A DNA stretch of 56,484 bases from Alphaproteobacteria bacterium UBA6187 (GCA_002422795.1 DITJ01000091.1:1-56484), one strand, 5' to 3'. Shown: positions 1-34,027, counted from the stretch's first letter. Program-made: numbers and translations. The notes: generated by a model from the sequence alone, not told the origin.

Positions 1-101
1 AGGTTTAGCAGTTGGGATAATTATGTTATTTTGGTTATAATGTAACCGCTAAATAACATAATTGACTATTAAAATACTGCATAATCCATAGCAAGTGACA
101 C

Positions 102-437
102 TTAATAAACGCTCAGCCCAAGCTGCAACTTTATAGCCCTTTCAATATCGGATATTTCAATATTTGTTAGTGAAGTGATTTTATCTTTAATTCTTAACTT
201 GCTTACAGTGGTAAGCTGGTCAGCCATTGCTTTGGCTTTTTTTGAGCCAATGAAAACCATAGTTTCTGTAGGATAAATTTTCTCAGTATTACTGGTTACA
301 GGCACAACCTGCACGCGGTTAGCATAGCGGTTATTAGCATTATTACTAATAACAACTGCTGGCCTAATTTTAGTTATTTCCCCACCAATTGAAGGATCAA
401 AATTCACCCAGTAAACGTCGCCACGCTTTAATTCCAT
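102..437 (-). CDS. mazF: Type II toxin, MazF/PemK-family endoribonuclease
   Basis: 111-aa ORF. The N-terminus KRGDVYWVNFDPSIGGEITKIRPAVVISN matches the PemK/MazF signature. Its ATG overlaps the stop of the upstream small ORF (TAATG). Confidence 0.85.
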   Translation of the reverse strand: MELKRGDVYWVNFDPSIGGEITKIRPAVVISNNANNRYANRVQVVPVTSNTEKIYPTETMVFIGSKKAKAMADQLTTVSKLRIKDKITSLTNIEISDIERAIKLQLGLSVY

Positions 438-658
438 TAGAAACCATTTATATCATTTAGTAAATTTTCTGACCACTCATCCGCCATTTTCTCACGGTTT
501 TTATCTAATGCCATTTCACGATAAGCAGCTCCTAATTTAGCCTCAATAAGATAAGGTTTCACCAATTCATTAATAAAATGGCTGATTTTTCCTTTGCCGA
601 TAACTTGGTGCAAACCAGCGTAAATATCATCATCAAGGGAAATAGTAATTTTGTGCAT
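437..658 (-). CDS. Type II antitoxin partner of MazF (small RHH/MazE-like DNA-binding protein)
   Basis: 73 aa, directly upstream of mazF with a 1-nt overlap. Short N-terminal beta-strand (KITISLDDDIY), then helices, then an acidic C-terminal tail. Confidence 0.65.
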   Translation of the reverse strand: MHKITISLDDDIYAGLHQVIGKGKISHFINELVKPYLIEAKLGAAYREMALDKNREKMADEWSENLLNDINGF

Positions 659-764
659 AATGAAAACTCCAATGGTCGTACAATCATACCACTATAATAC
701 CTCCGCCCTATATAATCAAGAAAAAATCTGGCAATTCCCAGTAGTTTAATGTATATAACTAACA

Positions 765-787
765 CCTGAAACCTGAAAACTGAAACC
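765..787. repeat. Single-arm heptamer array (cctgaaa cctgaaa actgaaa cc)
   Basis: Three tandem 7-mers immediately before the cimA ATG. No inverted partner was seen nearby. Confidence 0.6.
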
Positions 788-792
788 TTTAT

Positions 793-2385
793 ATGTCCGA
801 ACGAGTATATTTATACGATAGCACGCTCCGCGATGGCGCGCAAACTGAAGGTGTGGATTTTACCGCCGTTGATAAGCAGGATATTGCTAAAAGATTAGAC
901 CAACTAGGTATTGATTATATTGAAGGCGGATGGCCGGGCGCGAACCCTACTGATGATGAATTCTTTGCTCACCTTCCAAAAATGAAAAAAGCGCGTATCA
1001 GCGCCTTTGGCATGACCCGCCGCCCTGGAACTTCCGCAAGTAACGACCCCGGACTTGCCCCGCTACTAAATAGCGGCGTGGGTGTGATTTGCCTTGTGGG
1101 CAAAAGCTGGGATTTCCACGTTAAAAAAGCACTGGAAACTACGCTGGAAGAAAACCTTGCCATGATAAGCGACAGCATAAAATATGTTGTGCAGCAAGAC
1201 CGTGAAGCCGCACTTGATGCTGAGCATTTCTTCGATGGCTATAAAGCTAACCCCCAGTATGCACTAAAATGTGCGAAAGCCGCCTATGAAGCAGGTGCGC
1301 GCTGGGTGGTGCTATGTGATACTAACGGCGGCACACTGCCCCATGAAATTGAAGCAATAGTTGGGGAAGTTACTAAGCATATACCAGGCTCCCACCTTGG
1401 CATACATTGTCATAACGATACCGGCAATGCGGTTGCCAATTCACTCGCGGCAGTGCGCGCTGGCGTACGCCAGGTGCAGGGCACGGTAAATGGCGTGGGT
1501 GAACGCTGCGGCAATGCCAATTTAATAAGTATAATCCCTACCCTTATTTTGAAAATGGGTTTTACAACCGGGATAAAAGAATCGGAACTTCAACACTTAA
1601 CTAAAACCTCGCATTTCCTAGATGAAAAGCTGAATAAGGCTCAAGATAATTTCGCGCCTTATGTCGGCAAATCTGCATTCGCCCATAAAGGCGGCCTGCA
1701 TGTTTCTGCAATCATGAAAAACCCGAAATCCTATGAGCATATAGATCCGGCAACTATCGGCAATGTACGCAACATTCTGGTTTCCAGCCAGGCAGGACGC
1801 GCCAATATATTATCACGCCTTGAATCAGCAGGCTTTAAAACAGAAAATTATAGCAAGCATCTTATCAAAAAACTGGTGGATGAAGTAAAGCAGCGCGAAA
1901 GTGAAGGCTATGCGTTCGAGAATGCCGATGCCAGCTTTGAAGTGCTTGCCCACCGCATACTTGGCGACATTCCCACATATTTCCGCGTGGCTATATTCCG
2001 CGTTATTGATGAACGCCGCTGGGATAACGATGAAAAACTTATCACATTATCAGAAGCCACCGCCACCGTGCTGGTGGGCGGAGAAGAAGTGCTTACCGTT
2101 GCGCGCGGCAATGGCCCTGTAAATGCGCTAGACCAGGCCGTACGCAAAGCTTTGCAGAAAAAATACCCTATGGTAAATGACTTAAAACTGGTGGATTATA
2201 AAGTGCGTATCGTTAATTCCGGCGTTGGCACTGAGGCTATCACCCGCGTACTCATCGAAAGCGAAGATAAAGACGGCTCAAGATGGGTAACAGTTGGAGT
2301 TTCCGCAAATATCATCGATGCATCTTATAATGCCCTGCGCGATAGTATAACTTATAAACTTATTAAGAGTGGGTGTGTAGCCTAA
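793..2385 (+). CDS. cimA: (R)-citramalate synthase / LeuA-family aldolase
   Basis: LYDSTLRDGAQ N-terminal motif, GIHCHND metal site, and a C-terminal LeuA-type regulatory domain. The 530-aa length and EGGWPGANP are typical of the CimA clade. Confidence 0.8.
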   Translation: MSERVYLYDSTLRDGAQTEGVDFTAVDKQDIAKRLDQLGIDYIEGGWPGANPTDDEFFAHLPKMKKARISAFGMTRRPGTSASNDPGLAPLLNSGVGVICLVGKSWDFHVKKALETTLEENLAMISDSIKYVVQQDREAALDAEHFFDGYKANPQYALKCAKAAYEAGARWVVLCDTNGGTLPHEIEAIVGEVTKHIPGSHLGIHCHNDTGNAVANSLAAVRAGVRQVQGTVNGVGERCGNANLISIIPTLILKMGFTTGIKESELQHLTKTSHFLDEKLNKAQDNFAPYVGKSAFAHKGGLHVSAIMKNPKSYEHIDPATIGNVRNILVSSQAGRANILSRLESAGFKTENYSKHLIKKLVDEVKQRESEGYAFENADASFEVLAHRILGDIPTYFRVAIFRVIDERRWDNDEKLITLSEATATVLVGGEEVLTVARGNGPVNALDQAVRKALQKKYPMVNDLKLVDYKVRIVNSGVGTEAITRVLIESEDKDGSRWVTVGVSANIIDASYNALRDSITYKLIKSGCVA

Positions 2386-2395
2386 ACCCTCACCC

Positions 2396-3325
2396 CTAAA
2401 CCAACTTCTCGATTTCAGGAATTGATGTAAATAAATCCGCAACCAAACCATAATCAGCTACTTCAAAAATCGGAGCGTTTTCATCCTTATTAATGGCAAC
2501 GATGATTTTGCTGTCTTTCATGCCTGCTAAATGCTGGATAGCACCGGAAATTCCCACTGCAATATATAATTCAGGCGCAACAATTTTGCCGGTTTGCCCA
2601 ACCTGGTAATCATTGGAAATATAGCCCGCATCAACTGCCGCGCGGGATGCGCCAATTGCGCAATCATTAATTTTAGCAGCCAGCGATTCCAATATTTTGA
2701 AATTATCTTTGCTACCTAAGCCGCGCCCGCCGGAAATTACCACCCTTGCGCTGGAAAGATCAGGCCCTTTTGCAGCCGCCCCTTCATTCCTTACGAAAGA
2801 TACTGAATTAGTTGCACCTTTGCCGCTAATATTTTCCACCGCTGCATTTCCACCAAGTTCTGCTTTTGCAAATTTAGTGGTGCGGATGGTCATGATTTTT
2901 ATTTTATCAAGCGATTGTACCGTGGCTATTGCATTGCCTGCATATATCGGGCGCTTGAAACTATCTGGTGATATAATTTCCATAACATCAGTGATTTGCG
3001 CCACATCTAGGATAGCCGCCACGCGCGGCAGAAAATTCTTACCAAACGTATTTGAAGGGGCAAGAATATACGAATAATTCACCCCTAATTCTATAACCAG
3101 GGAAGCAATATTTTCTGCCAGGAAATGTTCATATGCAGAATCATCAGCACTTAAAACTTTTGTAACGCCGGAGATTTTAGCAGCCTCTTGTGCAGCACCG
3201 CTACAGTCTTTCCCCGCAACCAGAATGTGAATTTCTCCACCGATTTTCTTTGCCGCTTCCACTGTGTTTAATGTGGATGGGCTTATTGCGGTGTGGTTAT
3301 GTTCGGCTATTACTAGTATTGTCAT
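2396..3325 (-). CDS. etfA: Electron transfer flavoprotein alpha subunit
   Basis: 309 aa. C-terminal FAD-binding block [23 protein letters not shown]. Lies downstream of etfB. Confidence 0.95.
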
Positions 3326-3401
3326 CTTTATTCCTTCTTATTTATAACCTGAGTTCTGGATAACATCGCTAAAAACTTATTTGCAAGAAAGAATGTCTGG
3401 C

Positions 3402-3428
3402 GCTCCCTCTCCCTGAGGGAGAGGGAGC
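3402..3428. repeat. Palindromic REP-like element (ccctctccct family)
   Basis: gctccctctccctgagggagagggagc in the etfB-etfA spacer. The same motif occurs at 41033-41060 and 41185-41210. Confidence 0.8.
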
Positions 3429-3484
3429 TTTCTTTCCTAATTCTCACTATAAGATAACAACTTAACCTTTCACTACCAACGCAC

Positions 3485-4231
3485 CTACAAAACCCCAGCT
3501 TCCTTCAACTTCCCTACCAACTCCTCAACGCTTGCAACCTTCGCCCCGCCTTTGCGTTTTGGTGGCTCTTCCACTTTTATGGTTTTAAGCCTTGGGGTTA
3601 TATCAACACCGTAATCTTCTGGCTTTTTGGTAGCAAGGGGCTTGGCGCGCGCTTTCATAATATTCGGCAGTGCCGCATAACGCGGCTCATTCAGACGTAA
3701 ATCGGTAGTTATTATTGCGGGAAGTTTTACATTTATAACTTCGGTGCCGGAATCCACCTCGCGGGAAACCTCGGCGCTATCACCATTTATAGTAACTTTG
3801 GATGCAAATGTTGCTTGCGGCCAGTTAAGGAGCGCAGCCAGCATTTGCCCGGTCTGGTTAAAATCATCATCAATGGATTGCTTACCCATTATCACCAGGC
3901 CAGGATTTTCTTCCACAATAATGGCTTTTAATAATTTGGCAACGGCAAGCGGCTGTAATTCAGCATCTGTAAGCACATGGATTCCGCGGTCTGCGCCCAT
4001 TGCCATGGCAGTGCGGATTACTTCCTGCGCTTTATCAACTCCTAAAGATACCACTACAATTTCTGTAGCTACGCCTTTTTCTTTAAGCCGGATGGCTTCT
4101 TCAACGGCAATTTCGTCAAAAGGGTTCATCGACATTTTAACATTGGCAGTTTCCACGCCGGAATTATCAGATTTTACGCGCACTTTAACGTTGTAATCAA
4201 CCGCGCGCTTTACTGTTACTAGGATTTTCAT
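3485..4231 (-). CDS. etfB: Electron transfer flavoprotein beta subunit
   Basis: 248 aa. [19 protein letters not shown] start and [11 protein letters not shown] motif typical of EtfB. Confidence 0.95.
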
Positions 4232-4244
4232 TTTTAACCTTTTT

Positions 4245-4313
4245 AGAGTTCAGAGTTCGGAGTTCAGAGTTCAGTAATTAAAGAAGTATACTGAACTCTG
4301 AACTCCGAACTCT
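4245..4313. repeat. Heptamer-arm hairpin, gagttca family
   Basis: The arm agagttc agagttc ggagttc agagttc ag pairs with ctgaactctgaactccgaactct across a 16-nt AT-rich loop. Confidence 0.85.
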
Positions 4314-4318
4314 GACCA

Positions 4319-4504
4319 CTATCTTTTCACATAAAAATACATAAACGCAAGCATTATTATCGCCAAAAACTGGAACACAACACGCGCTATCATAAGCTTG
4401 TTGCTATATTTTTTATTTATTTTCCCACCCTTGGCAAGAACGAAGATACCTGCAATAAGGATTAAAATGGTGATAAATATAAGTATCAGTGGGATTGTTT
4501 GCAT
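4319..4504 (-). CDS. Twin-transmembrane-helix small protein (HIG1-domain-like)
   Basis: 61 aa with two hydrophobic helices separated by a basic loop (KGGKINKKYSNKLM). This is the usual alphaproteobacterial small-protein architecture. Confidence 0.6.
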   Translation of the reverse strand: MQTIPLILIFITILILIAGIFVLAKGGKINKKYSNKLMIARVVFQFLAIIMLAFMYFYVKR

Positions 4505-4540
4505 AAATTTTTATAGTTAGGGATTAGGTAACATCTCGTT

Positions 4541-4702
4541 TTGTATAGGTTGCTTAAAGTGCAACGTCATTGCGAGGAGTCGGCCTCTTGGGAGTACGAC
4601 GTGGCAATCCATCGCATCGATGTTGCTAACACTGGATCGCCACTTCGTGCTCGCTTCGCTTCGACTCATCGCGATGACGTTGCACTTTAAGTAACCAATT
4701 AC
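4541..4702. repeat. Multi-hairpin palindromic element, gtcat...atgac family
   Basis: Outer inverted repeat ttgtataggttgcttaaagtgcaacgtcat / atgacgttgcactttaagtaaccaattacaa. Inner pair gacgtggcaatcca / tggatcgccac. It creates a spurious 65-aa ORF. Confidence 0.8.
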
Positions 4703-4824
4703 AAAACTATACATTACACAGTCAATTCTTCAACATGAAGCATAACAAATAATTTTATAAAAACATATTTATAAAATATAGCTTATATTATATTCTGGTA
4801 GGAACCACATAAACAGGTAATGTT

Positions 4825-5904
4825 ATGAAAGGTGAAGTAGTTTATCTATATGCGTTTGATGTAGCCAATGGAATAATAATTGGCAAAGTTGGAGAGGTGC
4901 TTGCAAGCAAGCCGGTTCCCCTTGAAATAAATATCGACCACACCATCCCTAAAGACACCCCATTATACAAACCGTTATCAATTGAGCTTGCTCCCCTTAA
5001 CACTTTAATTACCGGGCATTTAATCCGCCCCATGATTCATGTTTATGAAATAGGCGCTATTTCAATTGCTATGCGTGTATCGGTTGAAATAGAAAATCTG
5101 AATGAGCTCATGCCATTCCACATGCCAACACTTGAAAATGGCAAAAGCTTAAGTGAAGCCGCCAAGGAAATATGTATTGATGCCTGCAAAAGCCTGAAGG
5201 ATGTTATGGTGCAGCCTTCCGATTTTTCTGAGCCGGAAGCCTATACTGTGTTTTGCCTGACTGATATTGGAAATCAGCCTGATTTAGATGAATGGCTGGT
5301 TAATAACCGTACTGCAATTGCAGAATTACTTACAGAAAGTAAGCCGGGCCTGCTGGATGAAATGCAGGTTGATGAAGTTATGCGCATTCAATATGCCTAT
5401 GCAAAGGGTGATTTAACCATTATCGACTGGGATGCGGCTTTCGTAGTAGACCTTACAGGCTATGTGGATGATGTTCTATATGTGCTGGAACTTGCTAATT
5501 TGCAGTTGGAAGAATATCTGGCAATGGACAAAAAACTTGATGGCTACCTGAACAAAGCCTATGAGGATGTGAAATCCCACAATTTACGCTTATTCCGTTC
5601 TTATCCGAAAATACTGAAGACTTTACGCGTTTTAAGTGTTGATGTAATCAAGCTTAATGATGAAGTTACCAATATCACAAAATTCTTCGGAGATTGGTAT
5701 CTGGCAAGGGTTTACTTAGGTGCGCATGAGCGCTTTCACCTGGAACAATGGCGAAATAGCGTAGGTGCGCGCCTTAAGCAACTTGATTCCATTTATACGG
5801 TTGTGCATTCGGAAATTACAAATTTCAGGATGCTATCGATGGAGGCATTAATAGTAATATTCTTTGCCATTGATTTACTTATGCTGTTCTTTCTCAGGCA
5901 TTGA
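4825..5904 (+). CDS. Hypothetical protein with a single C-terminal TM anchor (possibly DUF155/RMD1-like)
   Basis: 359-aa ORF with coding-like composition. The C-terminal EALIVIFFAIDLLMLFF helix after a long soluble domain resembles the RMD1/YagE family layout. The family call rests on weak motif memory only. Confidence 0.55.
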   Translation: MKGEVVYLYAFDVANGIIIGKVGEVLASKPVPLEINIDHTIPKDTPLYKPLSIELAPLNTLITGHLIRPMIHVYEIGAISIAMRVSVEIENLNELMPFHMPTLENGKSLSEAAKEICIDACKSLKDVMVQPSDFSEPEAYTVFCLTDIGNQPDLDEWLVNNRTAIAELLTESKPGLLDEMQVDEVMRIQYAYAKGDLTIIDWDAAFVVDLTGYVDDVLYVLELANLQLEEYLAMDKKLDGYLNKAYEDVKSHNLRLFRSYPKILKTLRVLSVDVIKLNDEVTNITKFFGDWYLARVYLGAHERFHLEQWRNSVGARLKQLDSIYTVVHSEITNFRMLSMEALIVIFFAIDLLMLFFLRH

Positions 5905-5921
5905 TAAAAAAGAAATATGTA

Positions 5922-6084
5922 TATACTCATTCTGTCTCAAACTACCGATTATAATGCCTCGTCTTTATTTGTTATATAAAAAAATTAAATCTTTGAAATA
6001 GAGCCGCTATTACTTCAGATTTAACTTTTCCCTATAACAAAAAATACTTGATTCTAATAGGCAGTTTGAAACAGAATGAGTATA
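5922..6084. mobile_element. MITE-like element, full-length copy (tatactcattct termini)
   Basis: 163 bp with terminal inverted repeats tatactcattctgtctcaaactaccgatt / ggcagtttgaaacagaatgagtata. It is near-identical to the reverse complement of 36283-36445. Confidence 0.85.
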
Positions 6085-6129
6085 GTTTTAATTGCACTTC
6101 AGAAGCCTATATGTATATTATAGCTTTGA

Positions 6130-7467
6130 ATGAGCAATGGTGCACGCGTGATATATTTAGAAGTTCTATTTATTTTATTTTTGATTTTTCTTAATGGCAT
6201 ATTTGCCATGTCAGAACTTGCGATTGTCTCCGCGAAGAAAGTGCACTTGAAGAGGTTAGCTGAAGAAGGCAGCAAATCCGCCCGTCTTGCCCTTGATTTT
6301 TCTCAGGACACAGGTCGGTTCCTTCCTACTGTGCAAATAGGAATTACACTTATTGGCGTTCTATCTGGTGCATTTAGCGGTGCAACACTGGCCACTCCAC
6401 TCACGCATTATCTGGAAGCGCTAGGCCTTAATACCGATACGGCGGAATTTATTTCCGTTACCGGCATTGTGGTTGTGGTAACTTATTTTACCCTGATTAT
6501 CGGTGAGCTGGTGCCAAAGGAACTAGCACTTAGAAATCCTGAAGGCCTTGCCCTATTCATATCGCCGATAATTTATTGGCTCTCACGCGTCACTTCGCCT
6601 GTGGTTTCATTGTTGGATGTATCTTGCCGCACAGTGCTTAAAGTTATTGGGGCTGGAGAAAAACCCAAAACAACCGTTACGGAAGAAGAGGTCCGTTCAA
6701 TGATTGATGAGGGAACCGAGCATGGACTTTTTGAAGAGGCTGAACGGGATATGATTTCAGGAATTATGCTTCTTGCGGATAAACCTATCAGCGCATTCAT
6801 GCTGCCGCGCATAGATGTAATTTCTATCAGCCGCAGTGCTTCTTTAGATGAAATAAGGCAGACACTTGCAGAACATCCTTATTCACGTTACCCGGTTTAT
6901 GATGGGCCTCACCGCGATATTGTGGGAATTTTGCAAGCCAAGGATATGCTGAATTATTTACTCAGCGGCAAACAACTAGACACAGAAGCTTTGCTGGTTG
7001 ATGTGCCGACATTCGCTGAAATAACTTCTACCATGAAGGTAATTGAGTATTTGCGAACCGTACCTGTCCACATGGCAATTATTGTAGATGAATATGGCTT
7101 ATTTGTAGGAATTATTACCTTAACCGATTTAGTTGAAGTTATTACAGGTGAATTATATGAGCATGGCGATACCGGCATGGAGATGGTACAGCGTGATGAT
7201 GGCTCTTGGGCTATTGATGCCAGCATTTTGCTGGAGATTGCCTTTGAAGAGATTGGTATTACATCTATGCCAAAGAATGCTAATTACCACACCCTTGCAG
7301 GATTCATGTTACAGAAATTTGGCATTATACCAAAAGTTGGTGATAAATTTCACTATAAAGGCTACCGCTTTGAAGTAATCGATATGGATGGCAATAGGAT
7401 AGATAAAGTATTAATTAGGAAGATTGTAAAATTTAAAAAGTCTGCGCCACTTCCAATAGCTGGGTAA
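6130..7467 (+). CDS. tlyC: Hemolysin-C/CorC-family membrane protein (DUF21 + CBS pair + CorC_HlyC)
   Basis: 445 aa. N-terminal 4-TM DUF21 region, a tandem CBS region (PRIDVISI...IVDEYG), and a C-terminal transporter-associated domain. Confidence 0.9.
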   Translation: MSNGARVIYLEVLFILFLIFLNGIFAMSELAIVSAKKVHLKRLAEEGSKSARLALDFSQDTGRFLPTVQIGITLIGVLSGAFSGATLATPLTHYLEALGLNTDTAEFISVTGIVVVVTYFTLIIGELVPKELALRNPEGLALFISPIIYWLSRVTSPVVSLLDVSCRTVLKVIGAGEKPKTTVTEEEVRSMIDEGTEHGLFEEAERDMISGIMLLADKPISAFMLPRIDVISISRSASLDEIRQTLAEHPYSRYPVYDGPHRDIVGILQAKDMLNYLLSGKQLDTEALLVDVPTFAEITSTMKVIEYLRTVPVHMAIIVDEYGLFVGIITLTDLVEVITGELYEHGDTGMEMVQRDDGSWAIDASILLEIAFEEIGITSMPKNANYHTLAGFMLQKFGIIPKVGDKFHYKGYRFEVIDMDGNRIDKVLIRKIVKFKKSAPLPIAG

Positions 7468-7561
7468 AACCATGGCAAACGCATTTAAAATCAACCACCC
7501 CCATCATAATCACAATCGGTATTAGTTCCAAACTTATGCCACCATTTCTTTAAAAACAGGC

Positions 7562-8941
7562 TCAAAAAAATTCAAACTTCACCGAAAATACAGCCTCTAC
7601 CTTCTTAACCATGCTTGCCTGGCAAAGGATAATAATGCGGTCTTTGGCCTGGATAACGCTATCATCATCCGGCAAAATAACTAAATCACCCCGGAGAATC
7701 AATCCAACTATTATGCCATGCGGAAGATTAAGTTCGCCAATATTTTTGCCGACAATATGCGATAACTCCACCGCTTCCGCCTCAATAATTTCAGCCTTAC
7801 CTTTGCAGATAGAATGCGCAGAAAGTATCCTGCCGCTCCTGATATGCTGTAAAATGCCAGATACGGTAATTTCGCGTGGGTTTACCGCAACATCAATACC
7901 AAGGGAAGAAACCAGCGGTGAATATGAGGCGGTATTATTTACCAGCGCAACCACCCTTTGGCAGCCAAAACGCTTGGAAAGAAGCGATACCAGAATATTT
8001 ACTTCATCATCATTGGAAACGGCTATAACTGTTTCTGATACTGCAACATTGGCTTCATCAAGTATTTCCTGAGATAAAGCATCACCATTAATAACAGTGG
8101 TGCGCTCAAGGTTTTCTGCAATATATTCCGCCCTTTCGCGATTTAACTCGATAAGTTTTACTTTAACATCAGGGGCTTCTTTTTCAAGATACTGCGCAAG
8201 GAACAAACCTATATTGCCGCCGCCCACAATTATAATACGCCTTGCCTCGCGCTCCTCATGGCCAAACATAGCCATCGCGTCCTGGACGTTTTTAGTATCA
8301 CAGGCAAAATATAATTCATCATCTTCAAGAAGTTCAACCCCATCACTGATAACCATGAAATTATCACCGCGCATCACGCCAAGAATAGAAACATTTATAG
8401 GGATAACTTTATTCTGTATCCTGTAAAGCAGCATATTAACCATAGGGCAATCCAGCGTGCAGCGCATCCCCACAACTTTAATCCTGCCATCGGCAAACGG
8501 GATTGTATCAACCGCGCCAGGCACATGCAGGCGGTGGATTACAGCCTCGGCTACTGCCTGCTCTGGTGATATGATAAAATCTATCGGTAAATGATCGTGC
8601 CTGTATAATTTCTTCCACTCAGGTTGCAGGTAATTCTGGTTACGGATACGGGCAATTTTGGTGGGGATATTAAACAGGGAGTGCGCAACCTGGCAGGCGA
8701 CCATATTTACTTCATCAGATTTTGTAACCGCGATAATCATATCGGCACTTGCCGCGCCCACCTCTTCCAATACGGTGGGGTGTGATGCAAAGCCTACATA
8801 CACTTTTACATCCAGATTATCACTGATTTTACTGATAAGTTCAGGAGATTGGTCAATAACAGTTACGTCATTACCCTCCATAGAAAGATACTTTGCTATA
8901 GAAGTGCCTACCTGACCTGCGCCGCAAATAATTATTTTCAT
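7562..8941 (-). CDS. trkA: Trk potassium-uptake system NAD-binding protein
   Basis: Two Rossmann motifs (MKIIICGAGQVGT and IIIVGGGNIG). I start it at the MKIIICGAG ATG (8941). The 15 upstream codons of the tracked ORF lie in a heptamer repeat. Confidence 0.9.
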   Translation of the reverse strand: MKIIICGAGQVGTSIAKYLSMEGNDVTVIDQSPELISKISDNLDVKVYVGFASHPTVLEEVGAASADMIIAVTKSDEVNMVACQVAHSLFNIPTKIARIRNQNYLQPEWKKLYRHDHLPIDFIISPEQAVAEAVIHRLHVPGAVDTIPFADGRIKVVGMRCTLDCPMVNMLLYRIQNKVIPINVSILGVMRGDNFMVISDGVELLEDDELYFACDTKNVQDAMAMFGHEEREARRIIIVGGGNIGLFLAQYLEKEAPDVKVKLIELNRERAEYIAENLERTTVINGDALSQEILDEANVAVSETVIAVSNDDEVNILVSLLSKRFGCQRVVALVNNTASYSPLVSSLGIDVAVNPREITVSGILQHIRSGRILSAHSICKGKAEIIEAEAVELSHIVGKNIGELNLPHGIIVGLILRGDLVILPDDDSVIQAKDRIIILCQASMVKKVEAVFSVKFEFF

Positions 8942-8956
8942 TTTTCTTAAGTGACA

Positions 8957-9066
8957 GGTAATGGGTGATGGGTGATGGGAATCCATCGCCTTACCCTACC
9001 TTCTTATCACACAACCTCTTAATATATACAACCCTAAAACCCATTACCTAACACCCATCACCCACC
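8957..9066. repeat. Heptamer-arm hairpin, gggtgat family
   Basis: ggtaatg ggtgatg ggtgatg gg pairs with cccattacctaacacccatcacccacc across a ~60-nt loop. Lies between the ntrX stop and the trkA start. Confidence 0.75.
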
Positions 9067-10473
9067 TTAAGCTACACAAAGCTCAACATCATGCTCACGC
9101 AGCTCTTTGCTTTTTACGCCCAGGCTTTTTAATTTCCTGTGGAATGCAGAGCGCTCCATCCCTACAAATGTTGCAGTTTTAGATACATTACCGCCAAATC
9201 TTTCTAACTGCGTTGTAAGATATTCTTTTTCAAATAATTCCCGTGCATCCTTAAGCTGCAAACCCATTATATCCGCGCCAGCACCAAATCCTGATGCCAT
9301 CGGGTTAGATGATAATAATTCAGGAGGGAGCATGTTAGAGGTAATCTGGTTGCCTCCTTCATCATTAGTCATTATAAGCAGCCACTCAACTACATTCCGA
9401 AGCTGCCTTATGTTCCCCGGCCATGAATATACTTCCATTGCCGCTATAGCACTTTCGTTTAATTCCCTTTGCGGTACAGAAAGGTTTTCCGCATATTTTT
9501 TGATAAAATAATTAGCAAGCGGCAAAATATCGCCTTTACGCTCTTTTAGTGATGGCACTTTAAGGGGAACTACATTCAGGCGATAAAACAAATCTTCCCT
9601 GAAACGTCCTGCGGATATTTCATTTTGCAGGTTCTTATTTGTGGAAGCAATTATCCTTACATCAACATTTACACGTTTATTCCCGCCAACCCTTTCAAAA
9701 CTGTTTTCCTGTAATATACGAAGGATTTTCCCTTGCGTACCAAGAGGCATATCGGCCACCTCATCAAGGAATAATGTGCCGCCATGTGCACGCTCTAAGG
9801 TTCCGGTTTTACCCTCCCCGCCTGCGCTATATTCTTTTCCGAATAATTCCTCTTCAACTTTATCCTGCGATATACTGGAGGCATTAAGTATTACAAACGG
9901 CCCGGCATGTCGTTTTGATTTCTGGTGTATAAGCCTGGCTACCATTTCCTTACCACAACCGGCAGCACCATTCAGCATGATCCGGCTTTCTGTAGGGGCC
10001 ACTTTTTCTATAGCCTGGCGCAGCGCGAGAACAGCGTGGGATTCGCCAATCAGGTGATTTTCATATACACCTTTTTTTAATTCTTCATTTTCATTTTTTA
10101 ATTTTGCAGTTTCTACAGCGCGTTTTACAAGCCTTAATATCCTATCTTCCTTAAAGGGCTTTTCTATATAGTCATACGCGCCAAGCCGGATAGAATGTAT
10201 CGCCGTTTCTATATTGCCGTGACCGCTTATCATGATAACAGGTAAATTCGGGTATCTTTTCTTTACAGCCTCAAGTATACCAAGCCCATCCATATCGCTG
10301 CCTTGCAGCCATATATCCAGCACAACAACCGCCGGCACACGCTCTCTTATCGCCTCAATAGCGCCTGTGCTATCACTTGCTACCCTTGGGTTATAACCTT
10401 CATCACGCAATATATCCGATATAAGGTCCCTTATATCCTGCTCATCATCTACTATAAGTACATCAAGTGACAT
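9067..10473 (-). CDS. ntrX: NtrX-type response regulator (receiver + AAA+ + HTH)
   Basis: Receiver domain (DDEQDIRD...VLDIWL), AAA+ Walker A GAAGCGKE, C-terminal Fis-type HTH. Sits downstream of ntrY. Confidence 0.85.
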   Translation of the reverse strand: MSLDVLIVDDEQDIRDLISDILRDEGYNPRVASDSTGAIEAIRERVPAVVVLDIWLQGSDMDGLGILEAVKKRYPNLPVIMISGHGNIETAIHSIRLGAYDYIEKPFKEDRILRLVKRAVETAKLKNENEELKKGVYENHLIGESHAVLALRQAIEKVAPTESRIMLNGAAGCGKEMVARLIHQKSKRHAGPFVILNASSISQDKVEEELFGKEYSAGGEGKTGTLERAHGGTLFLDEVADMPLGTQGKILRILQENSFERVGGNKRVNVDVRIIASTNKNLQNEISAGRFREDLFYRLNVVPLKVPSLKERKGDILPLANYFIKKYAENLSVPQRELNESAIAAMEVYSWPGNIRQLRNVVEWLLIMTNDEGGNQITSNMLPPELLSSNPMASGFGAGADIMGLQLKDARELFEKEYLTTQLERFGGNVSKTATFVGMERSAFHRKLKSLGVKSKELREHDVELCVA

Positions 10474-10510
10474 AAGTTATATCCTAAAGTTAAGTTCTGG
10501 GATAAGATAA

Positions 10511-10591
10511 TTTAAGATTTAAGATTGTAAATTTAATATTTGAATATGGCTTCTTCTTTAAATCTTAAATCTACAATCTTAAATCTTAAAT
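10511..10591. repeat. Heptamer-arm hairpin, taagatt family
   Basis: tttaaga tttaaga ttgtaaa tttaa pairs with tttaaatcttaaatctacaatcttaaatcttaaat. Lies between the ntrY stop and the ntrX start. Confidence 0.85.
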
Positions 10592-10594
10592 CCC

Positions 10595-12457: not shown

Positions 12458-12469
12458 ATTGTTATCCTG

Positions 12470-12594
12470 GTCATCCTGAACTAGTTTCAGGATCCATCTA
12501 GCAAAGTAATAGAAGACAGATTTGTATGCAACCACTTAATAAAAAGTTCTTTCTTTGTATTTCAAAATGGATCCTGAAATAAATTCAGTATGAC
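12470..12594. repeat. Palindromic element, gtcat...atgac family
   Basis: gtcatcctgaactagtttcaggatccat ... atggatcctgaaataaattcagtatgac. Overlaps the false 5' extension of ntrY. Confidence 0.7.
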
Positions 12595-12595
12595 G

Positions 12596-13570: not shown

Positions 13571-13573
13571 ATT

Positions 13574-13708
13574 AGAGTTCAGAGTCCCAAGTTCAGAGTT
13601 CAGAATATAGTGTAAAAACTTAACCATTAAAAATATTGCTACCTATACTCGTTACGTTATATATACTAATTATTGTATTTTTACAACTGAACTCTGAACT
13701 CTGAACTC
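13574..13708. repeat. Heptamer-arm hairpin, gagttca family
   Basis: agagttc agagtcc caagttc agagttc ag pairs with ctgaactctgaactctgaactc across an ~83-nt AT-rich loop. Lies in the divergent dusB/ispDF region. Confidence 0.8.
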
Positions 13709-13720
13709 CGGCAACTAAAC

Positions 13721-15031
13721 ATGAACCAATACAACACCATCTGCCTTATAGTCGCAGCCGGAAGCGGGGCAAGGCTTGGAAATGAAATTCCAAAGCAATA
13801 TCTTATGCTTGGCAATAAACCAATACTCAGGCATTCCGCAGAAGCATTCCTGAATCATCCGCAAATTGATGCAGTTTGCGTTATTTATAACCCAGCCCAT
13901 CAAGAATTTTATGATAATGCGGTAGGGGATTTAAACTTATACCGAGTTGCATTCAAAGAACGAGTAGGAGTGCTAGGCGAGGAGGGCGCAAGCGTAGGCT
14001 TACTACGTGCGCACCGACAAGACCGCTGCACGACAACCTCTTTCAAAGAATGCAACTCGGTATTACTCCCTCCGGTTGCGGGAGGCGCTACCAGGCAGGA
14101 ATCCTCCCGCCTTGGGATTGAGGCAATTGCAAAACATAACCCAAAAAAAGTGCTGATACACGACGGTGCGCGCCCATTTGTAGATAGCCGCATTATAACT
14201 GATATAATAAATGCACTTGATGAAACATGCGCCGCCATCCCTGCCCTGCCTGTGGAAGATACTATTAAGGAAATAGAAAATGGCAGGATTATAAAAACTA
14301 TTCCAAGGGAAAATTTGTTCCGGGCGCAGACTCCGCAGGGGTTTGTATATAGCGAAGTTAGAAGTGGCGAGCATACTTCTAACTTCTCACTCCTAACTTC
14401 TCACTTCACCGATGATGCCTCCATATTCGAACACTTACAAAAAGAAGTCCGCATCATTCCAGGCTCACAAAACAACTTTAAAATCACCACCACAGAAGAT
14501 TTACAAAGGGGAGAAATTCTTATGTCACAAAATGTTGAGACAAGAGTAGGAATGGGTTTTGATGCCCATAAATTCTGCGAACCAAAAATGGATGAAAATA
14601 ACTTCATAATGCTTTGCGGAGTGGCAGTTCCACATGATAAAAGCCTGGAGGGGCATTCCGATGCTGATGTTGGACTGCATGCGGCGGTGGACGCAATACT
14701 CGGCGCAATCGCAGCAGGCGATATAGGCACGCATTTCCCGCCAAGCGATATGCAGTGGAAAGGCGCTGATTCCAGTATTTTTCTAGCACATGCCGCTAAA
14801 CTTTTAAAAGAACGTGGTGGAGAAATTATTAATATTGATATAACCATTATTTGTGAAAGACCAAAAATATTACCGCACCGCGATAAAATGTGTGGGACAA
14901 TTGCAAAAATACTTGGTATTGAGCAATCACGTGTTAGTGTTAAAGCTACTACTACTGAAGGAATGGGCTTTACCGGGCGGAAAGAGGGAATTGCCGCGCA
15001 GGCAATTGTTAGTATAAGGATTAAGGAATAA
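13721..15031 (+). CDS. ispDF: Bifunctional MEP cytidylyltransferase / MEcPP synthase, carrying an in-frame palindromic insert
   Basis: IspD motifs (VAAGSGARLG, GGATRQES) and IspF motifs (RVGMGFDAHKF, GHSDADVGLHA). A ~41-aa insert is encoded by a palindromic repeat at 13939-14063. Confidence 0.9.
   Translation: MNQYNTICLIVAAGSGARLGNEIPKQYLMLGNKPILRHSAEAFLNHPQIDAVCVIYNPAHQEFYDNAVGDLNLYRVAFKERVGVLGEEGASVGLLRAHRQDRCTTTSFKECNSVLLPPVAGGATRQESSRLGIEAIAKHNPKKVLIHDGARPFVDSRIITDIINALDETCAAIPALPVEDTIKEIENGRIIKTIPRENLFRAQTPQGFVYSEVRSGEHTSNFSLLTSHFTDDASIFEHLQKEVRIIPGSQNNFKITTTEDLQRGEILMSQNVETRVGMGFDAHKFCEPKMDENNFIMLCGVAVPHDKSLEGHSDADVGLHAAVDAILGAIAAGDIGTHFPPSDMQWKGADSSIFLAHAAKLLKERGGEIINIDITIICERPKILPHRDKMCGTIAKILGIEQSRVSVKATTTEGMGFTGRKEGIAAQAIVSIRIKE
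13939..14063. repeat. RPE-like palindromic element, copy 1 (in frame within ispDF)
   Basis: Outer inverted repeat ataccgagttgcattc / gaatgcaactcggtat, core taggagtgctaggcgaggagggcgcaagcgtagg, central hairpin cgtag-gctta-ctacg. No stop codon in the host frame. Confidence 0.85.
14354..14407. repeat. Heptamer-arm hairpin inside the ispD coding region
   Basis: gaagttagaag-tggcgagcata-cttctaacttc, extended by the 7-mers cttctca ctcctaa cttctca cttc. Confidence 0.6.
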
Positions 15032-15726: not shown

Positions 15727-16230
15727 ATGCTTAATGATAAATTAGCAAAAACCGCAAATGAATTATTAAAAAGCTTGCGTAAGAAAAAAATGCGCCTTGC
15801 AACTGCGGAAAGCTGCACTGGCGGGCTTATTGCAATGGCTATTACTGATATTCCAGGCTCCTCTGAAGTTTTCGAAAGGGGCTTTGTTACATACTCAAAT
15901 GAATCAAAAATTGATCTTCTAACCGTCCCTACTTTTTATATGGAAGATTATGGCGCTGTAAGCATGGAAGTGGCCGTGGCGATGGCGGAAGGTGCGCTTC
16001 TTATGTCCCGCGCTGATGTTAGTGTATCCGTCACCGGCTGCGCAGGCCCTGGCGGTGGCACAGAAGAAAAACCTATCGGCACTGTGTTTATCGGTTGCTC
16101 ACTTAAAAACCATGATACTGTTTTTGAAAAATTCTTATTTAAAGGCAACCGCCAGGAAATAAGGGAACAATCGGCAGAAGCGGCTTTGAAGATGGCGTTG
16201 GAAGTGATTAGTGTTATTCAAAACAACTAA
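15727..16230 (+). CDS. pncC: CinA-C-terminal-domain protein / nicotinamide-nucleotide amidohydrolase
   Basis: 167 aa. LATAESCTGGL and VTGCAGPGGG motifs of the CinA/PncC family. Confidence 0.8.
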   Translation: MLNDKLAKTANELLKSLRKKKMRLATAESCTGGLIAMAITDIPGSSEVFERGFVTYSNESKIDLLTVPTFYMEDYGAVSMEVAVAMAEGALLMSRADVSVSVTGCAGPGGGTEEKPIGTVFIGCSLKNHDTVFEKFLFKGNRQEIREQSAEAALKMALEVISVIQNN

Positions 16231-16240
16231 CAACTAATTC

Positions 16241-16445: not shown

Positions 16446-16796
16446 ATGCCAAATGTTCTGCGTCATAGGAAGCGGGAAGATTTTTTAAGGGTAAGGAACG
16501 CTAATAAAAGCGTTTCTGCCGCAGGTCTGGTGCTGCAGGTTGCAACCAGCAATATAGATGACGCCTCATCTATAAGGGTTGGCTTTACAGCAACTTCCAA
16601 AATCGGCAATGCAGTAGTAAGAAACCGCATTAAAAGAAGATTACGCGCCGTTGTGCGTGAGGTCATGGGCAAATCTGCTATTCCTGCACATGATTATGTT
16701 ATTATCGGCAGGTTTCGCACCGCAGACCGAGAATTTACCAGCCTGGTAAAAGATTTAAAATACGCACTCCATAATACAGGCACTTTTAAAAAGTAA
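16446..16796 (+). CDS. rnpA: RNase P protein component
   Basis: 116 aa, basic, VRNRIKRRLR motif. Conserved position after rpmH. Confidence 0.85.
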   Translation: MPNVLRHRKREDFLRVRNANKSVSAAGLVLQVATSNIDDASSIRVGFTATSKIGNAVVRNRIKRRLRAVVREVMGKSAIPAHDYVIIGRFRTADREFTSLVKDLKYALHNTGTFKK

Positions 16797-16856
16797 GATT
16801 TAAGATTGTAGATTTAAGATTTAAAATCTTCAATCTTAAATCTACAATCTTAAATC
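16794..16856. repeat. Heptamer-arm hairpin, taagatt family
   Basis: taagatt taagatt gtagatt taagatt taaa pairs with aatcttaaatctacaatcttaaatc. Lies between the rnpA stop and the yidD start. Confidence 0.85.
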
Positions 16857-31624: not shown

Positions 31625-33941
31625 ACTTAGCCTGCACAGGGCGCTTACTATAGCGCATAAATGTTCGCATGAATATGCAACATTGGAACATTTGTTGCTG
31701 GGGCTAACAGAAGACCCAGAAGCTTGTGAAGTCCTCAATGGCTGCGGTGCCAACATCCCCGAATTATGCGATGAATTAAAAGTTTTCCTTAGCACAAAAC
31801 TTACTGCACTTGTTGTGGAAAGTAATGTGGAAGTAAAGCCCACCGCAGGTTTCCAAAGGGTTATACACCGGGCGGCCATAAATGCCCATTCAACCAGCAG
31901 AAAACAGGTAACGGGTGCAAATGTTTTAGCCGAAATGTTTGGTGAGCATGAATCCCATGCAATATATTTCCTGAAAGAGCAAGGTATAACCTATCTTGAT
32001 GTGGTAAATTACATAGCAAGCAACCGCGACCTTAAAAAGGTTATCCAGCAGAAAAATGATATAGATAATGCAGGTTATGATGAAAATGAAATTATCATGC
32101 CACAAAGCGTGTTCGAGCGCATCAGCCAGCCTACGCCTTTGAATTTAAGTGGTGAAGAACAAAAGCCCAAAGATAAAAATAGCGCCCTTAATACTTATTG
32201 CGTAAACCTTAACAAACGTGCATCCGAAGGCAAGATTGATGTACTTATAGGCCGTGATGAGGAAGTGGAGCGCACTGTAGAAATATTATGCCGACGCAGC
32301 AAAAATAACCCACTTTATGTAGGCGAGCCAGGGGTTGGCAAAACTGCGCTGGTGGAGGGGCTGGCATACCGTATCGTGCGAGGCCAAGTGCCAGATAGCC
32401 TGAAAAAATCCATTATTTTCAGCCTTGATATGGGCGCTCTGCTAGCGGGTACAAAATACCGTGGCGATTTCGAAGAGCGCATGAAGGCTATAATAACCGA
32501 AATAGAAAAACTGCCCCATGCCATATTATTTATTGATGAAATCCATACAATAGTAGGGGCTGGTTCCACCAATGGCGGCTCGCTTGATGCCAGCAACCTG
32601 CTTAAACCAGCACTTGCACGCGGTGAATTTAAGTGTATAGGCTCAACCACTTACACCGAATACCATAATAGCTTTGAGAAAGACAGGGCGCTGATAAGGC
32701 GCTTCCAGAAAATTGATATAGATGAGCCTTCGCGCGATGTTGCTATAAAAATATTAAAGGGTCTTAAGCCTTATTATGAAGAGCATCATAATGTAAAATA
32801 TACAAGTGATGCAATTGAAGCTGCCGTTGACCTTTCAATCCGTTATATGACTAACCGTAAGCTCCCAGATAAAGCCCTTGATATTATTGATGAGGCGGGC
32901 GCAAATTATAAAATGCGTGCCACTGATAAATCCACAAAAACTATTACAATCAGGGATATAGAAAACATTGTTGCTAAAATTACTAAAATTCCAACAAAAT
33001 CCCTGCAATCGGATGAAGCTGAACAATTACGCTTCTTAGAAAGTAAATTAAAGAAGGTAATATTCGGACAGGATAAAGCCGTGGAATCACTGGCAACAGC
33101 TGTAAAACTCTCCCGCGCCGGGCTTCGTGATGCAAAAAAACCTACCGGTTGTTATTTATTCTCCGGCCCTACAGGGGTTGGAAAAACCGAACTTGCTGCC
33201 CAGCTTGCAGTGCAGATGCATATGGAACTTATCCGTATAGATATGTCTGAGTATTTAGAAGCACATTCGGTGGCGCGTCTAATCGGTGCGCCTCCTGGCT
33301 ATGTTGGTTTTGAACAGGCAGGTATATTAACAGAAGCTATCGAAAAAAACCCTTATTCTGTTTTACTATTTGATGAAATGGAAAAAGCCCACCCGGATGT
33401 ATATAATATATTGCTGCAAGTGATGGATTATGGCCAGCTAACTGATAACAACGGTAAGTCGCTGAATTTCAGGAATAGTATTATAATAATGACCACTAAT
33501 GCCGGGGCAAGTGATTTCAGCCGTAATACCATAGGCTTTGGTGATCATGAAAATGCAAGCGACAATAACGATGCAATTTCGCGTGTGTTTACGCCGGAGT
33601 TCCGTAACCGCCTTGATTCAATAATACATTTTATGCCACTTAACGAGGAAGTGGTGGAACTTGTGGTTGATAAGTTTATAGATGGTATGCAGGCGCAGTT
33701 AGCAGACCGAGGCGTGAAAATAGAGGTCTCCAAAAAAGCGCGTAAATATCTCTCTGAAAAGGGCTATGACAGCAAAAATGGAGCACGTCCACTAGAGCGG
33801 ATAATCAGTGATGAAATAAAAAAACAGCTAGCGGATGAAATATTGTTTGGCAAATTATCTAAAGGTGGTAAAGTAACCGTAGATATCAAACAGGATAAAC
33901 TTACTTTCCTGTTTGCTGAAAAAGAGGCGCTAGTAAGATAG
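31605..33941 (+). CDS. clpA: ATP-dependent Clp protease ATP-binding subunit ClpA
   Basis: Clp_N repeats and two AAA+ modules (GEPGVGKTA, GPTGVGKTE). The ATG at MLSKNLELSL is preferred over the GTG at 31596. Confidence 0.95.
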   Translation: MLSKNLELSLHRALTIAHKCSHEYATLEHLLLGLTEDPEACEVLNGCGANIPELCDELKVFLSTKLTALVVESNVEVKPTAGFQRVIHRAAINAHSTSRKQVTGANVLAEMFGEHESHAIYFLKEQGITYLDVVNYIASNRDLKKVIQQKNDIDNAGYDENEIIMPQSVFERISQPTPLNLSGEEQKPKDKNSALNTYCVNLNKRASEGKIDVLIGRDEEVERTVEILCRRSKNNPLYVGEPGVGKTALVEGLAYRIVRGQVPDSLKKSIIFSLDMGALLAGTKYRGDFEERMKAIITEIEKLPHAILFIDEIHTIVGAGSTNGGSLDASNLLKPALARGEFKCIGSTTYTEYHNSFEKDRALIRRFQKIDIDEPSRDVAIKILKGLKPYYEEHHNVKYTSDAIEAAVDLSIRYMTNRKLPDKALDIIDEAGANYKMRATDKSTKTITIRDIENIVAKITKIPTKSLQSDEAEQLRFLESKLKKVIFGQDKAVESLATAVKLSRAGLRDAKKPTGCYLFSGPTGVGKTELAAQLAVQMHMELIRIDMSEYLEAHSVARLIGAPPGYVGFEQAGILTEAIEKNPYSVLLFDEMEKAHPDVYNILLQVMDYGQLTDNNGKSLNFRNSIIIMTTNAGASDFSRNTIGFGDHENASDNNDAISRVFTPEFRNRLDSIIHFMPLNEEVVELVVDKFIDGMQAQLADRGVKIEVSKKARKYLSEKGYDSKNGARPLERIISDEIKKQLADEILFGKLSKGGKVTVDIKQDKLTFLFAEKEALVR

Positions 33942-33947
33942 GTGGCA

Positions 33948-34015
33948 GGTATTGGGTGATAGGTGATAGGGAAGAACCTTAATCCCTAACACCCATTCCC
34001 TAACACCTAATACCC
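33948..34015. repeat. Heptamer-arm hairpin, gggtgat family
   Basis: ggtattg ggtgata ggtgata ggg pairs with ccctaacacccattccctaacacctaataccc. Lies immediately after the clpA stop. Confidence 0.75.
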
Positions 34016-34027
34016 ATAGGTTACCAT

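Follow-up and report, generated by a model that had tools for sequence, protein, structure and literature searches.

Inverted arrays of heptamer repeats that form hairpins at gene boundaries of an uncultured alphaproteobacterium

Knowledge of tandem heptanucleotide repeats in bacteria goes back to the reports on Calothrix (cited in PMC4692102), and a 'heptamer rule' has already been published, along with the idea that the 7-nt unit is related to how much DNA the active site of the polymerase holds (Mrazek et al., 2007, as cited in PMC4692102). In Xanthomonas, GGGAATC repeats make up 70-75 convergent array pairs per genome whose length varies between species, and both these and GGGGAYT repeats form G-quadruplexes (G4) in vitro (PMC4692102). 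Direct repeats of TAACTGA occur in Beggiatoaceae, cyanobacteria and some Bacteroidetes, and the protein CspB binds heptamers (MacGregor, 2015, PMC4679880). The heptamer repeats of Nostoc alter reporter expression when near start codons (recF/recO preprint, bioRxiv 10.1101/2022.06.06.494920). In the 5' untranslated region (5'-UTR) of hmw in Haemophilus influenzae a heptamer simple-sequence repeat (SSR) supplies an arm of an RNA hairpin, which RNase III cuts, and transcription, hairpin and RNase III must all be present for the control of expression and for changes in repeat number, which in turn affect expression (PMC12721329); this is the sole experimentally worked-out mechanism for a heptamer-repeat hairpin. 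Here we describe hairpins whose arms are inverted tandem arrays of 7-nt units, among them one of AGAGTTC units at 4245-4313, in a metagenome-assembled contig of Alphaproteobacteria bacterium UBA6187 (GCA_002422795.1 DITJ01000091.1:1-56484). The whole contig (56,484 nt) is referred to as the window, and counts for this genome come from these 56 kb.

A preliminary description of the window had read, at 4245-4313, an AGAGTTC hairpin closed across an AT-rich loop, and our reading of the sequence agrees. The core AGAGTTC AGAGTTC GGAGTTC AGAGTTC AG (4245-4274) pairs with CT GAACTCT GAACTCC GAACTCT (4291-4313) around an AT-rich loop of 12-16 nt, and one deviating unit, GGAGTTC, has its mirror image GAACTCC in the opposite arm. 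The second AGAGTTC member, described at 13574-13708, is present as well. In our own scan of periods 2-21 the window contained seven tandem arrays of period 7 and six of period 14, against means of 0.06 and 0.14, respectively, in fifty Markov-1 shuffles. No other period gave more than one array, so that rival periods, which might have been equally common, stay scarce within the window. Other alphaproteobacterial DNA (73 loci, 1.28 Mb) yielded three period-7 arrays in all. Tandem Repeats Finder (TRF) reported 17 period-7 rows in the window, with 2.1-5 copies each, and among the 22 strongest stem-loops about eight have heptamer-periodic arms and one has period 6. The units found are AGAGTTC, TAAGATT, GGGTGAT, GAAGTTA, TGAAAAA, AAACAAC and ACCTGAA, and eight inverted pairs were counted among the arrays, with stems of 13-33 bp.

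The same inverted construction had been proposed for several further sites with unrelated heptamers. Period-7 TRF arrays were found at every one of these sites, but no inverted counterpart goes with the array at 764-788. Inverted pairs do exist at other sites, but asymmetry and lower stability mark those at 38525-38586 and 41108-41165, and both GGGTGAT copies are degenerate. Several distinct heptamers are involved, but not all are mutually unrelated, since the 764 array, which reads GTTTCAG on its opposite strand, differs from AGTTCAG by two changes. Placement at gene boundaries, with a single exception within ispD, was borne out: heptamer elements occupy nine of the 42 intergenic spacers (9.5% of the intergenic DNA, the occupied spacers being nearly filled), one coding loop and one site that overlaps a stop codon. 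Copies of the same family are alike in arms and units alone, and their loops (4 to ~88 nt) and flanks are unrelated. Given this, and that only period 7 is enriched, the earlier view that they are not one family of repetitive extragenic palindromic (REP) sequences or transposable elements of the miniature inverted-repeat type (MITEs), but share a generator or constraint, is supported. Nor is the construction restricted to the window, as it was also seen in the loci L092, L109, L115 and L070. An assembly artefact was rejected because the hairpins are seen in independent assemblies: a second assembly, 99.99% identical to the window, has the heptamer structures, and they were found in Logan contigs of four other runs. 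One contig of the same population (L081) shows two differences from the window in 20 kb, both outside hairpins.

A way to approach the origin of the arrays is to compare the same spacers among relatives of different closeness. In metagenomic relatives with 78-82% NtrX identity, ntrY is separated from ntrX, and ntrX from trkA, by 9-28 nt (139 nt in one relative) free of arrays, and in a relative at 71% NtrX identity ntrX and trkA abut, again with no array. The corresponding gaps of the window measure 121-125 nt and are filled by hairpins. Since the orthologous gaps of the relatives are short and lack heptamer arrays, the hairpins are lineage-specific additions. The relatives do have a few heptamer arrays at other places. 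Within ispDF of the locus L084, positions 6409-6443 read (TCGTTTA)x5, i.e. (TAAACGA)n, and encode NDKRQTINDKR. This array sits in the same variable IspD loop as the coding hairpin of the window, and the heptamers differ; because the two loops hold different arrays, we suggest that arrays may persist wherever they are tolerated.

A freshwater-metagenome strain, 95-98% identical to the window and designated here the sister strain, allowed a finer comparison. Its contig L088 covers the two spacers flanking ntrX and differs from the window by two substitutions in one spacer, none in the other, and two indels. Specifically, it lacks 14 nt (two units) of the C-rich arm at 9050-9063 and 21 nt (three units) of the AATCTTA arm of the 10510 hairpin. 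Both deletions are clean and flanked by direct repeats, and in both the partner arm is unaltered. Owing to the repetitive make-up of the arms, a register-shifted stem can survive when units are lost: such a stem is predicted for the 8957 hairpin after the 14-nt loss (-32.5 vs -37 kcal/mol), and the 10510 hairpin would go from about 32 bp, -35.7 kcal/mol (z-score -6.8) to about 13 bp, -14.8 kcal/mol (z -0.8) after the 21-nt loss. Elsewhere whole segments have been exchanged. In ispDF, the 58 nt at 14346-14403 are swapped for 85 nt, a difference of 27 nt that keeps the reading frame, and another sister-strain contig reads AAGTTTGAAGTTTG at this hairpin segment; the TGAAAAA hairpin (41109-41170) is swapped for 22 unrelated nt. 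The sister strain also skips 31 nt at the 16222..16237 array, and its contigs break at three further hairpins. Judging by the whole-unit indels and the replacement of hairpins between strains, the arms behave as hypervariable, slippage-prone heptamer microsatellites in which stem length at a given site is not strongly constrained. Because the strains differ by exactly two and three units, a process that works unit by unit is indicated; together with the uniform arm polarity described below (11 of 11 families), this upholds the proposal of a common generating mechanism or constraint.

On balance we consider that these elements are probably heptamer-microsatellite hairpins, i.e. pairs of inverted tandem 7-nt arrays that spread into DNA which is not essential. 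In general terms their class is that of the heptameric SSRs of Nostoc/Calothrix, Xanthomonas and Beggiatoaceae. Observed directly were the period of 7 nt, the inverted arrangement, the whole-unit indels between strains, the empty orthologous sites and the missing terminator tails. As to how the arrays arise, slipped-strand mispairing between units would add and remove them, as the 14-nt and 21-nt indels flanked by direct repeats suggest. What would keep the arms, variants included, as mirror images is probably template switching within the strand or the copying of one arm onto the other. Arrays of one family may also seed new sites, since two loci have the same unit order and the orthologous junctions of relatives are empty. 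Most hairpins would be transcribed, lying inside operons or 5' leaders, and would fold into duplexes of 13-33 bp; because of this location and the absence of a U-tract they are presumably read through. Such duplexes would most likely serve as substrates of RNase III or as barriers to exonucleases, and the stability and translation of the adjacent cistrons, whose stop or start codons lie 0-36 nt away, would shift. Gain and loss of units would then alter expression in a heritable manner. In this view the hairpins are dispensable, and whatever influence they have on regulation is probably incidental to a repeat that propagates itself, and not what the repeat is for.

Several points weigh against this interpretation. 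The shrinkage of one hairpin from about 32 to about 13 bp speaks against a conserved function at that site, and the hairpins at 33937..34020 and 38525..38586 show no indel in the sister strain. The indels that were seen could have come from recA-independent deletion and not from replication slippage. Slippage in situ does not account for a 43%-GC AGAGTTC array within contigs of 67-72% GC (see below), nor for the uniform polarity of the arms, and the two together hint at sequence-specific selection or transfer. The window sequence was found in DNA runs only, with no RNA run among those holding it, and the evidence base for the genome is 56 kb.

The elements of the window are collected in Table 1. 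The genes around them are alphaproteobacterial (dusB-ntrY-ntrX-trkA, a bifunctional ispDF, rnpA-yidD-yidC, clpS-clpA, etfAB, cimA and dapB), and the closest species representatives are metagenome-assembled genomes labelled Rickettsiales or Rickettsiaceae, with 68-71% NtrX identity. Freshwater and hydrocarbon metagenome DNA runs hold the window sequence. The 5' arm begins 0-3 nt after the stop codons of ntrY, ntrX, rnpA and clpA, and between the end of the 3' arm and the start codon that follows there are 7-36 nt; the AGAGTTC hairpins come within 3-12 nt of the start codons of etfB, dusB and ispDF. The two TAAGATT copies have a single AATCTAC variant in common.

Table 1. Heptamer elements of the window, with positions, arm features and neighbouring genes.
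Element	Position	Strand	Arms and loop	Genes
Direct-only array ACCTGAA ACCTGAA AACTGAA ACC	764..788	+	no inverted partner	stops 4 nt short of citramalate synthase (cimA) ATG (793)
AGAGTTC hairpin	4244..4321	.	arms 4244-4276 and 4289-4321, 33 nt, 94% complementary; AT-rich loop of 12 nt	etfB ATG (minus strand, 4231) 12 nt downstream
GGGTGAT/ATCACCC hairpin	8957..9064	.	G-rich arm 8957-8979, C-rich arm 9033-9064	between ntrX stop (9067) and trkA ATG (8941), both minus strand
TAAGATT/AATCTTA hairpin	10510..10592	.	arms 32-35 nt	minus-strand genes; ntrY stop (10595) 2 nt before, ntrX ATG (10473) 36 nt after
Second AGAGTTC hairpin	13574..13711	.	loop ~80 nt	fills divergent dusB(-)/ispDF(+) spacer; dusB ATG (13570) 3 nt off, ispDF ATG (13721) about 10 nt off
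GAAGTTA/ACTTCTA hairpin and array	14354..14407	+		within ispDF reading frame; codes part of a length-variable IspD surface loop (protein alignment)
Short direct array (AACAACT) x 2.3	16222..16237	+		overlaps pncC/cinA stop codon
TAAGATT/AATCTTA hairpin	16794..16856	.	25-bp perfect stem; variant unit GTAGATT mirrored as AATCTAC	rnpA stop codon in first unit; yidD ATG (16868) 11 nt past end
GGTGATA/TATCACC-type hairpin, degenerate second copy	33937..34020	.		overlaps clpA stop codon (33939-33941); PAS-GGDEF gene start (34028) 7 nt beyond
Asymmetric pair	38525..38586	.	TTTGTCGTTTATA with TATAAACGACAAA, then (AAACAAC)n	glycosyltransferase gene at 38669 downstream
TGAAAAA/GTGAAAA hairpin	41108..41165	.	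lies within a longer inverted repeat of GGGAGAGGG type (41032-41210)	stop codon of flavin reductase on one side, start codon of dapB on the other

Gene calling was affected at two of these sites. The longest open reading frames (ORFs) of trkA (7562-8986, 474 aa) and dusB (12596-13627, 343 aa) begin at ATGs within hairpins, and the gene calls on the contig L081 start at the same hairpin ATGs; family profiles and relatives favour starts at 8941 for trkA (459 aa) and 13570 for dusB (324 aa). The over-extension thus follows from ATGs that the hairpins supply. At the left end of the window (102-437) there is a gene for a MazF/PemK-type toxin, preceded on a sister contig by an ORF of 73 aa that is probably the antitoxin.

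RNA folding predicts that the hairpins are highly stable. The lowest values were obtained for the AGAGTTC hairpin at 4240-4325 (-49.7 kcal/mol, z -11.8 for the plus strand; -51.3, z -10.7 for the minus strand), followed in z-score by the TAAGATT hairpins at 16790-16860 (-31.1 kcal/mol, z -11.1) and 10505-10597 (-31.1 kcal/mol, z -8.5). In these three the predicted stems are 25-33 bp long, and the array would be the arm of a long RNA duplex. Lesser z-scores were found for 13571-13720 (-39.3 kcal/mol, z -5.7), the pair 38525..38586 (-15.9 kcal/mol, z -4.9), 33937..34020 (-35.8 kcal/mol, z -4.2), the ispDF hairpin 14354..14407 (z -4.2), 41108..41165 (z -3.4) and the GGGTGAT hairpin 8957..9064 (-37 kcal/mol, z -2.2). 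A consensus scan for promoter-like matches stayed at the level of shuffled sequence (63 vs 54.5 +/- 6.4), and the whole window gave no match to Rfam 15 at the gathering score.

The distribution of one of the units outside the window bears on how far the process may be shared. We searched public metagenome contigs for the AGAGTTC hairpin pattern (each arm with two units, 4-34 nt in the loop) and found 34 loci with a G+C content of 34-72%, a count that applies to the AGAGTTC pattern alone. One of them is from a Cytophagales genome, with a threonyl-tRNA synthetase (ThrRS) about 85% identical to that of Siphonobacter. Loops and flanks differ in every one of the 34 loci. The rare period-7 arrays of GC-rich outgroup loci are themselves GC-rich, which makes the 43%-GC AGAGTTC arrays in contigs of 67-72% GC compositional outliers. 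A Pfam scan of 47 genes flanking AGAGTTC hairpins found unrelated housekeeping genes with no common function and no transposase. By crude ORF calls, the hairpins in other taxa adjoin stop codons at 36 flanks and start codons at 18. Arrays nearby are of one- and two-base variants such as ATTTCAG, GGTTCAG and AATTCAG, and the locus L092 (51% GC) has two AGAGTTC hairpins along with GGGGATA/TATCCCC and GGGGCGA/CTCGCCC inverted arrays, i.e. the multi-family pattern of the window. The hairpin pattern had no match in viral contigs, a BLAST search of PLSDB plasmids gave none either (possibly through low-complexity masking), and AGAGTTC repeat strings in full-text literature were unrelated primer sequences only. 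As for a different unit, a contig at ~118x in a hydrocarbon metagenome (runs X2-X4) matches the window at the TAAGATT array only (about 10504-10526) and is unrelated beyond it. The window organism has a depth of about 3x in that metagenome, and a much more abundant organism of the sample may carry the TAAGATT family.

The orientation of the arms was uniform. In all 11 independent heptamer-hairpin families the 5' arm has more G than C and the 3' arm more C than G (two-sided binomial p about 0.001), in a small sample made up of six families of the window and five from L092, L109, L070 and L115. For AGAGTTC, the opposite, C-arm-first arrangement would be CTGAACTCTGAACT-N(4-34)-AGTTCAGAGTTCAG. Among the non-heptamer inverted repeats of the window seven are G-first, four C-first and four neither, so that no clear polarity appears there. 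As the arrangement of a hairpin is identical on both strands, the polarity has to be an intrinsic property. It may possibly come from co-transcriptional folding that never exposes a single-stranded C-rich arm, or from a generating step that is itself polar. A preference for one arm because of stop triplets was rejected: AGAGTTC arrays are stop-free and their complement contains TGA. The polymerase-active-site idea leaves arm polarity unaccounted for.

It is conceivable, and we put it forward only tentatively, that the hairpins form one cross-phylum class with a built-in G-arm-first polarity and a shared vocabulary of units, generated or maintained by a single conserved process, probably coupled to transcription, or by a trans-acting factor. 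AGAGTTC, found in genomes from 34% to 72% GC and in both Alphaproteobacteria and Bacteroidota, exemplifies such a vocabulary. A single process or factor would account for the polarity as well as for a unit of 7 nt, which ordinary replication slippage on random sequence would not.

A related but unlikely alternative is that the hairpins are dedicated cis-regulatory elements. Particular heptamers, AGAGTTC/GAACTCT for example, would be kept by selection across phyla, and their units in leaders would be read by a conserved trans-acting factor (e.g. of the cold-shock-domain or S1 type, with one heptamer per monomer) that controls translation. The recurrence of an identical AGAGTTC hairpin in the 34 loci, the Cytophagales genome included, and its outlying composition in GC-rich hosts would fit, as would the uniform polarity in 11 of 11 families. 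So would the presence of a GAACTCT or CTGAAAC arm in sense 3-14 nt before the starts of etfB, dusB, ispDF and cimA, since the TAACTGA repeats of Beggiatoaceae are placed alike and CspB binds heptamers (PMC4679880), and the Nostoc repeats near starts have an effect on a reporter (bioRxiv 10.1101/2022.06.06.494920). However, at least six heptamers within 56 kb fit a single specific reader poorly, the flanking genes share no function, and in other taxa the hairpins adjoin stop codons twice as often as starts. They are also missing from the orthologous sites of relatives and unstable between strains, and the over-representation of AGAGTTC among heptamers may not hold.

Lower still we would rate mobility, that is, non-autonomous elements of the REP/REPIN (REP doublets forming hairpins) or MITE type that would travel as single-stranded hairpins through the action of a transposase from another part of the genome, such as an IS200-like Y1 enzyme or a REP-associated tyrosine transposase (RAYT). 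Three families have two copies each in 56 kb, the copies are insertions with respect to relatives, one hairpin is nested in another inverted repeat, and the sister-strain contigs break at hairpins as they would at multi-copy sequence. REP sequences and bacterial interspersed mosaic elements (BIMEs) are also reported at gene ends with no target-site duplications (PMC3333891). The internal make-up of the copies argues otherwise: they are alike in repeat units only, with unrelated loops of 4 to ~88 nt, and a transposase would not account for six unrelated sequences with one period. No transposase was found among the protein families of the window (one Pfam scan, top 25 families) or beside the 34 other hairpins. 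The REP/BIME-REPIN class was rejected because the copies have repeat units alone in common; the window protein families listed, from 56 kb of the genome, include no RAYT (Y1). The MITE class was rejected because the copies lack a conserved core and the hairpin edges show no visible target-site duplication.

A role at the DNA level, in which cruciforms, G-quadruplexes or protein-binding arrays would act on replication, recombination, supercoiling or promoter access, seems to us very unlikely. Perfect inverted repeats of 25-33 bp could extrude cruciforms, the whole divergent promoter region between dusB and ispDF is spanned by one hairpin, and the identity of the arrangement on both strands would suit DNA. 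The GGGTGAT arrays do resemble the G4-forming GGGAATC and GGGGAYT (PMC4692102), but the array at 8957-8979 has three GGG runs only (plus one GG), the tracts at 33937-33970 are interrupted, and most families, i.e. AGAGTTC, TAAGATT and TGAAAAA among others, have no G-tracts. Besides, the helical repeat is not matched by a unit of 7 bp, proteins that bind the arrays are not known, and the data do not require a role of this kind. Finally, intrinsic or U-tract-independent terminators or attenuators, a function the preliminary description had proposed to probe, are scarcely credible: strong stem-loops do stand right after the ntrY, ntrX, rnpA and clpA stops and many hairpins of other taxa lie between convergent genes, but a T-run is missing after every heptamer hairpin, none is among the 28 terminator-like sites called in 1-20000 by a scan that does detect canonical terminators (e.g. 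3402-3428), several sit within the conserved operons ntrY-ntrX-trkA and rnpA-yidD-yidC, whose genes nearly abut in relatives, two are upstream of the starts of divergent genes and one is within an ORF.

The intergenic DNA of the window is crowded with several repeat classes besides the heptamer hairpins. A palindromic element of ~125 bp (26-nt arms, 73 nt between them) lies in frame in two genes, at 13939-14063 and 55178-55302. The copy in ispDF (13939-14063) adds 42 aa that are missing from four relatives, and the clearly homologous copy at 55178-55302 is inside the ORF 55125-56408. We take this element to resemble the Rickettsia palindromic elements that enter coding regions. An inverted-repeat family of MITE-like appearance (5922-6084, 36283-36445, 38151-38197) begins with TATACTCATTCTG and has a nested inner inverted repeat; its read depth, 5-15 times the local value, indicates that it is multi-copy. 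One copy (5919-6079) is missing in the sister strain, where 5 nt fit both sides of the joint. The larger intergenic spacers also contain long inverted repeats from other families, located at 4545-4699, 12470-12594, 42137-42240, 42398-42575 and 46861-47101; in the sister strain 12510-12567 is swapped for 66 different nt and most of 42033-42333 is missing. Another repeated motif, the GGGAGAGGG/CCCTCTCCC palindrome, appears as a canonical terminator-like hairpin with a T-rich tail at 3402-3428 and as the outer arms (41032-41056/41186-41210) that enclose the TGAAAAA hairpin.

Returning to the heptamer-microsatellite hairpins, the window represents a very dense, multi-family case of heptamer repeats in an unrelated, uncultured alphaproteobacterial lineage, in which near-identical strains give direct evidence for the gain or loss of whole units. 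One exact heptamer hairpin is found again in hosts of very different base composition, and the rule that the G-rich arm comes first is a constraint on any mechanism proposed. On the practical side, the hairpins break short-read assemblies and mislead gene callers, as in the case of trkA and dusB. If the idea of tuning through RNase III were true, they would be a widespread source of heritable and reversible variation in operon expression.

The elements of the window show the defining features of heptameric SSRs, convergent pairing included, and we have assigned them to this class because they do so while the comparisons with REP/BIME sequences, MITEs, terminators and Rfam families failed. None of the described units GGGAATC, GGGGAYT and TAACTGA is among the window units, the nearest being the one-base variant AAACTGA in the 764 array. 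Natural whole-unit indels in a sister strain, a cross-phylum AGAGTTC hairpin and a uniform arm polarity appear to be unreported in the searchable literature. REP/BIME (REPIN) sequences and MITEs are likewise abundant intergenic palindromes at gene ends and in operons, lineage-specific and polymorphic among strains, but their copies are conserved in sequence, and frequently there are defined ends or a transposase that belongs to them, whereas those of the window, with internally repetitive arms, share unit and period only. The likeness to hmw (PMC12721329) is that a 7-nt SSR would form the arm of a long hairpin in leader RNA, as predicted for the window; hmw, in contrast, is a single locus of phase variation in a pathogen and its second arm is a non-repeat G-rich tract.

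The TAACTGA repeats (PMC4679880) offer a parallel in that one heptamer occurs across distant phyla with no evident mechanism of transfer, arrays end a few nucleotides before start codons, and the spacers of relatives are shorter and repeat-free. The 764-788 array even contains AAACTGA, one base from TAACTGA (PMC4679880, Table 3), and its forward placement is alike. Unlike them, with one inverted case among 170, the arrays of the window are mostly inverted pairs and of other units. The cyanobacterial short tandemly repeated repetitive (STRR) sequences of Calothrix and Nostoc/Anabaena also comprise several heptamer units per genome, in tandem, intergenic and near starts or promoters. They are, however, mostly direct arrays with few inverted pairs in Nostoc (PMC4692102), their units are others, and their host is a photosynthetic cyanobacterium and not a Rickettsiales-like alphaproteobacterium. 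The GGGAATC arrays of Xanthomonas (Rehm et al., 2015, PMC4692102) share tandem 7-nt units in intergenic DNA with period 7 alone over-represented, pairs on opposite strands with stem-loop potential, and extensive variation in length between close relatives; their 'convergent' orientation, as we read it, amounts to G-arm-first polarity too. They differ in having a single type of unit, rich in G and investigated for its formation of G-quadruplexes, where the window has at least six unit types, mostly devoid of G-tracts, in a host of another phylum, with one coding copy and a local density that we estimate to be roughly ten times higher.

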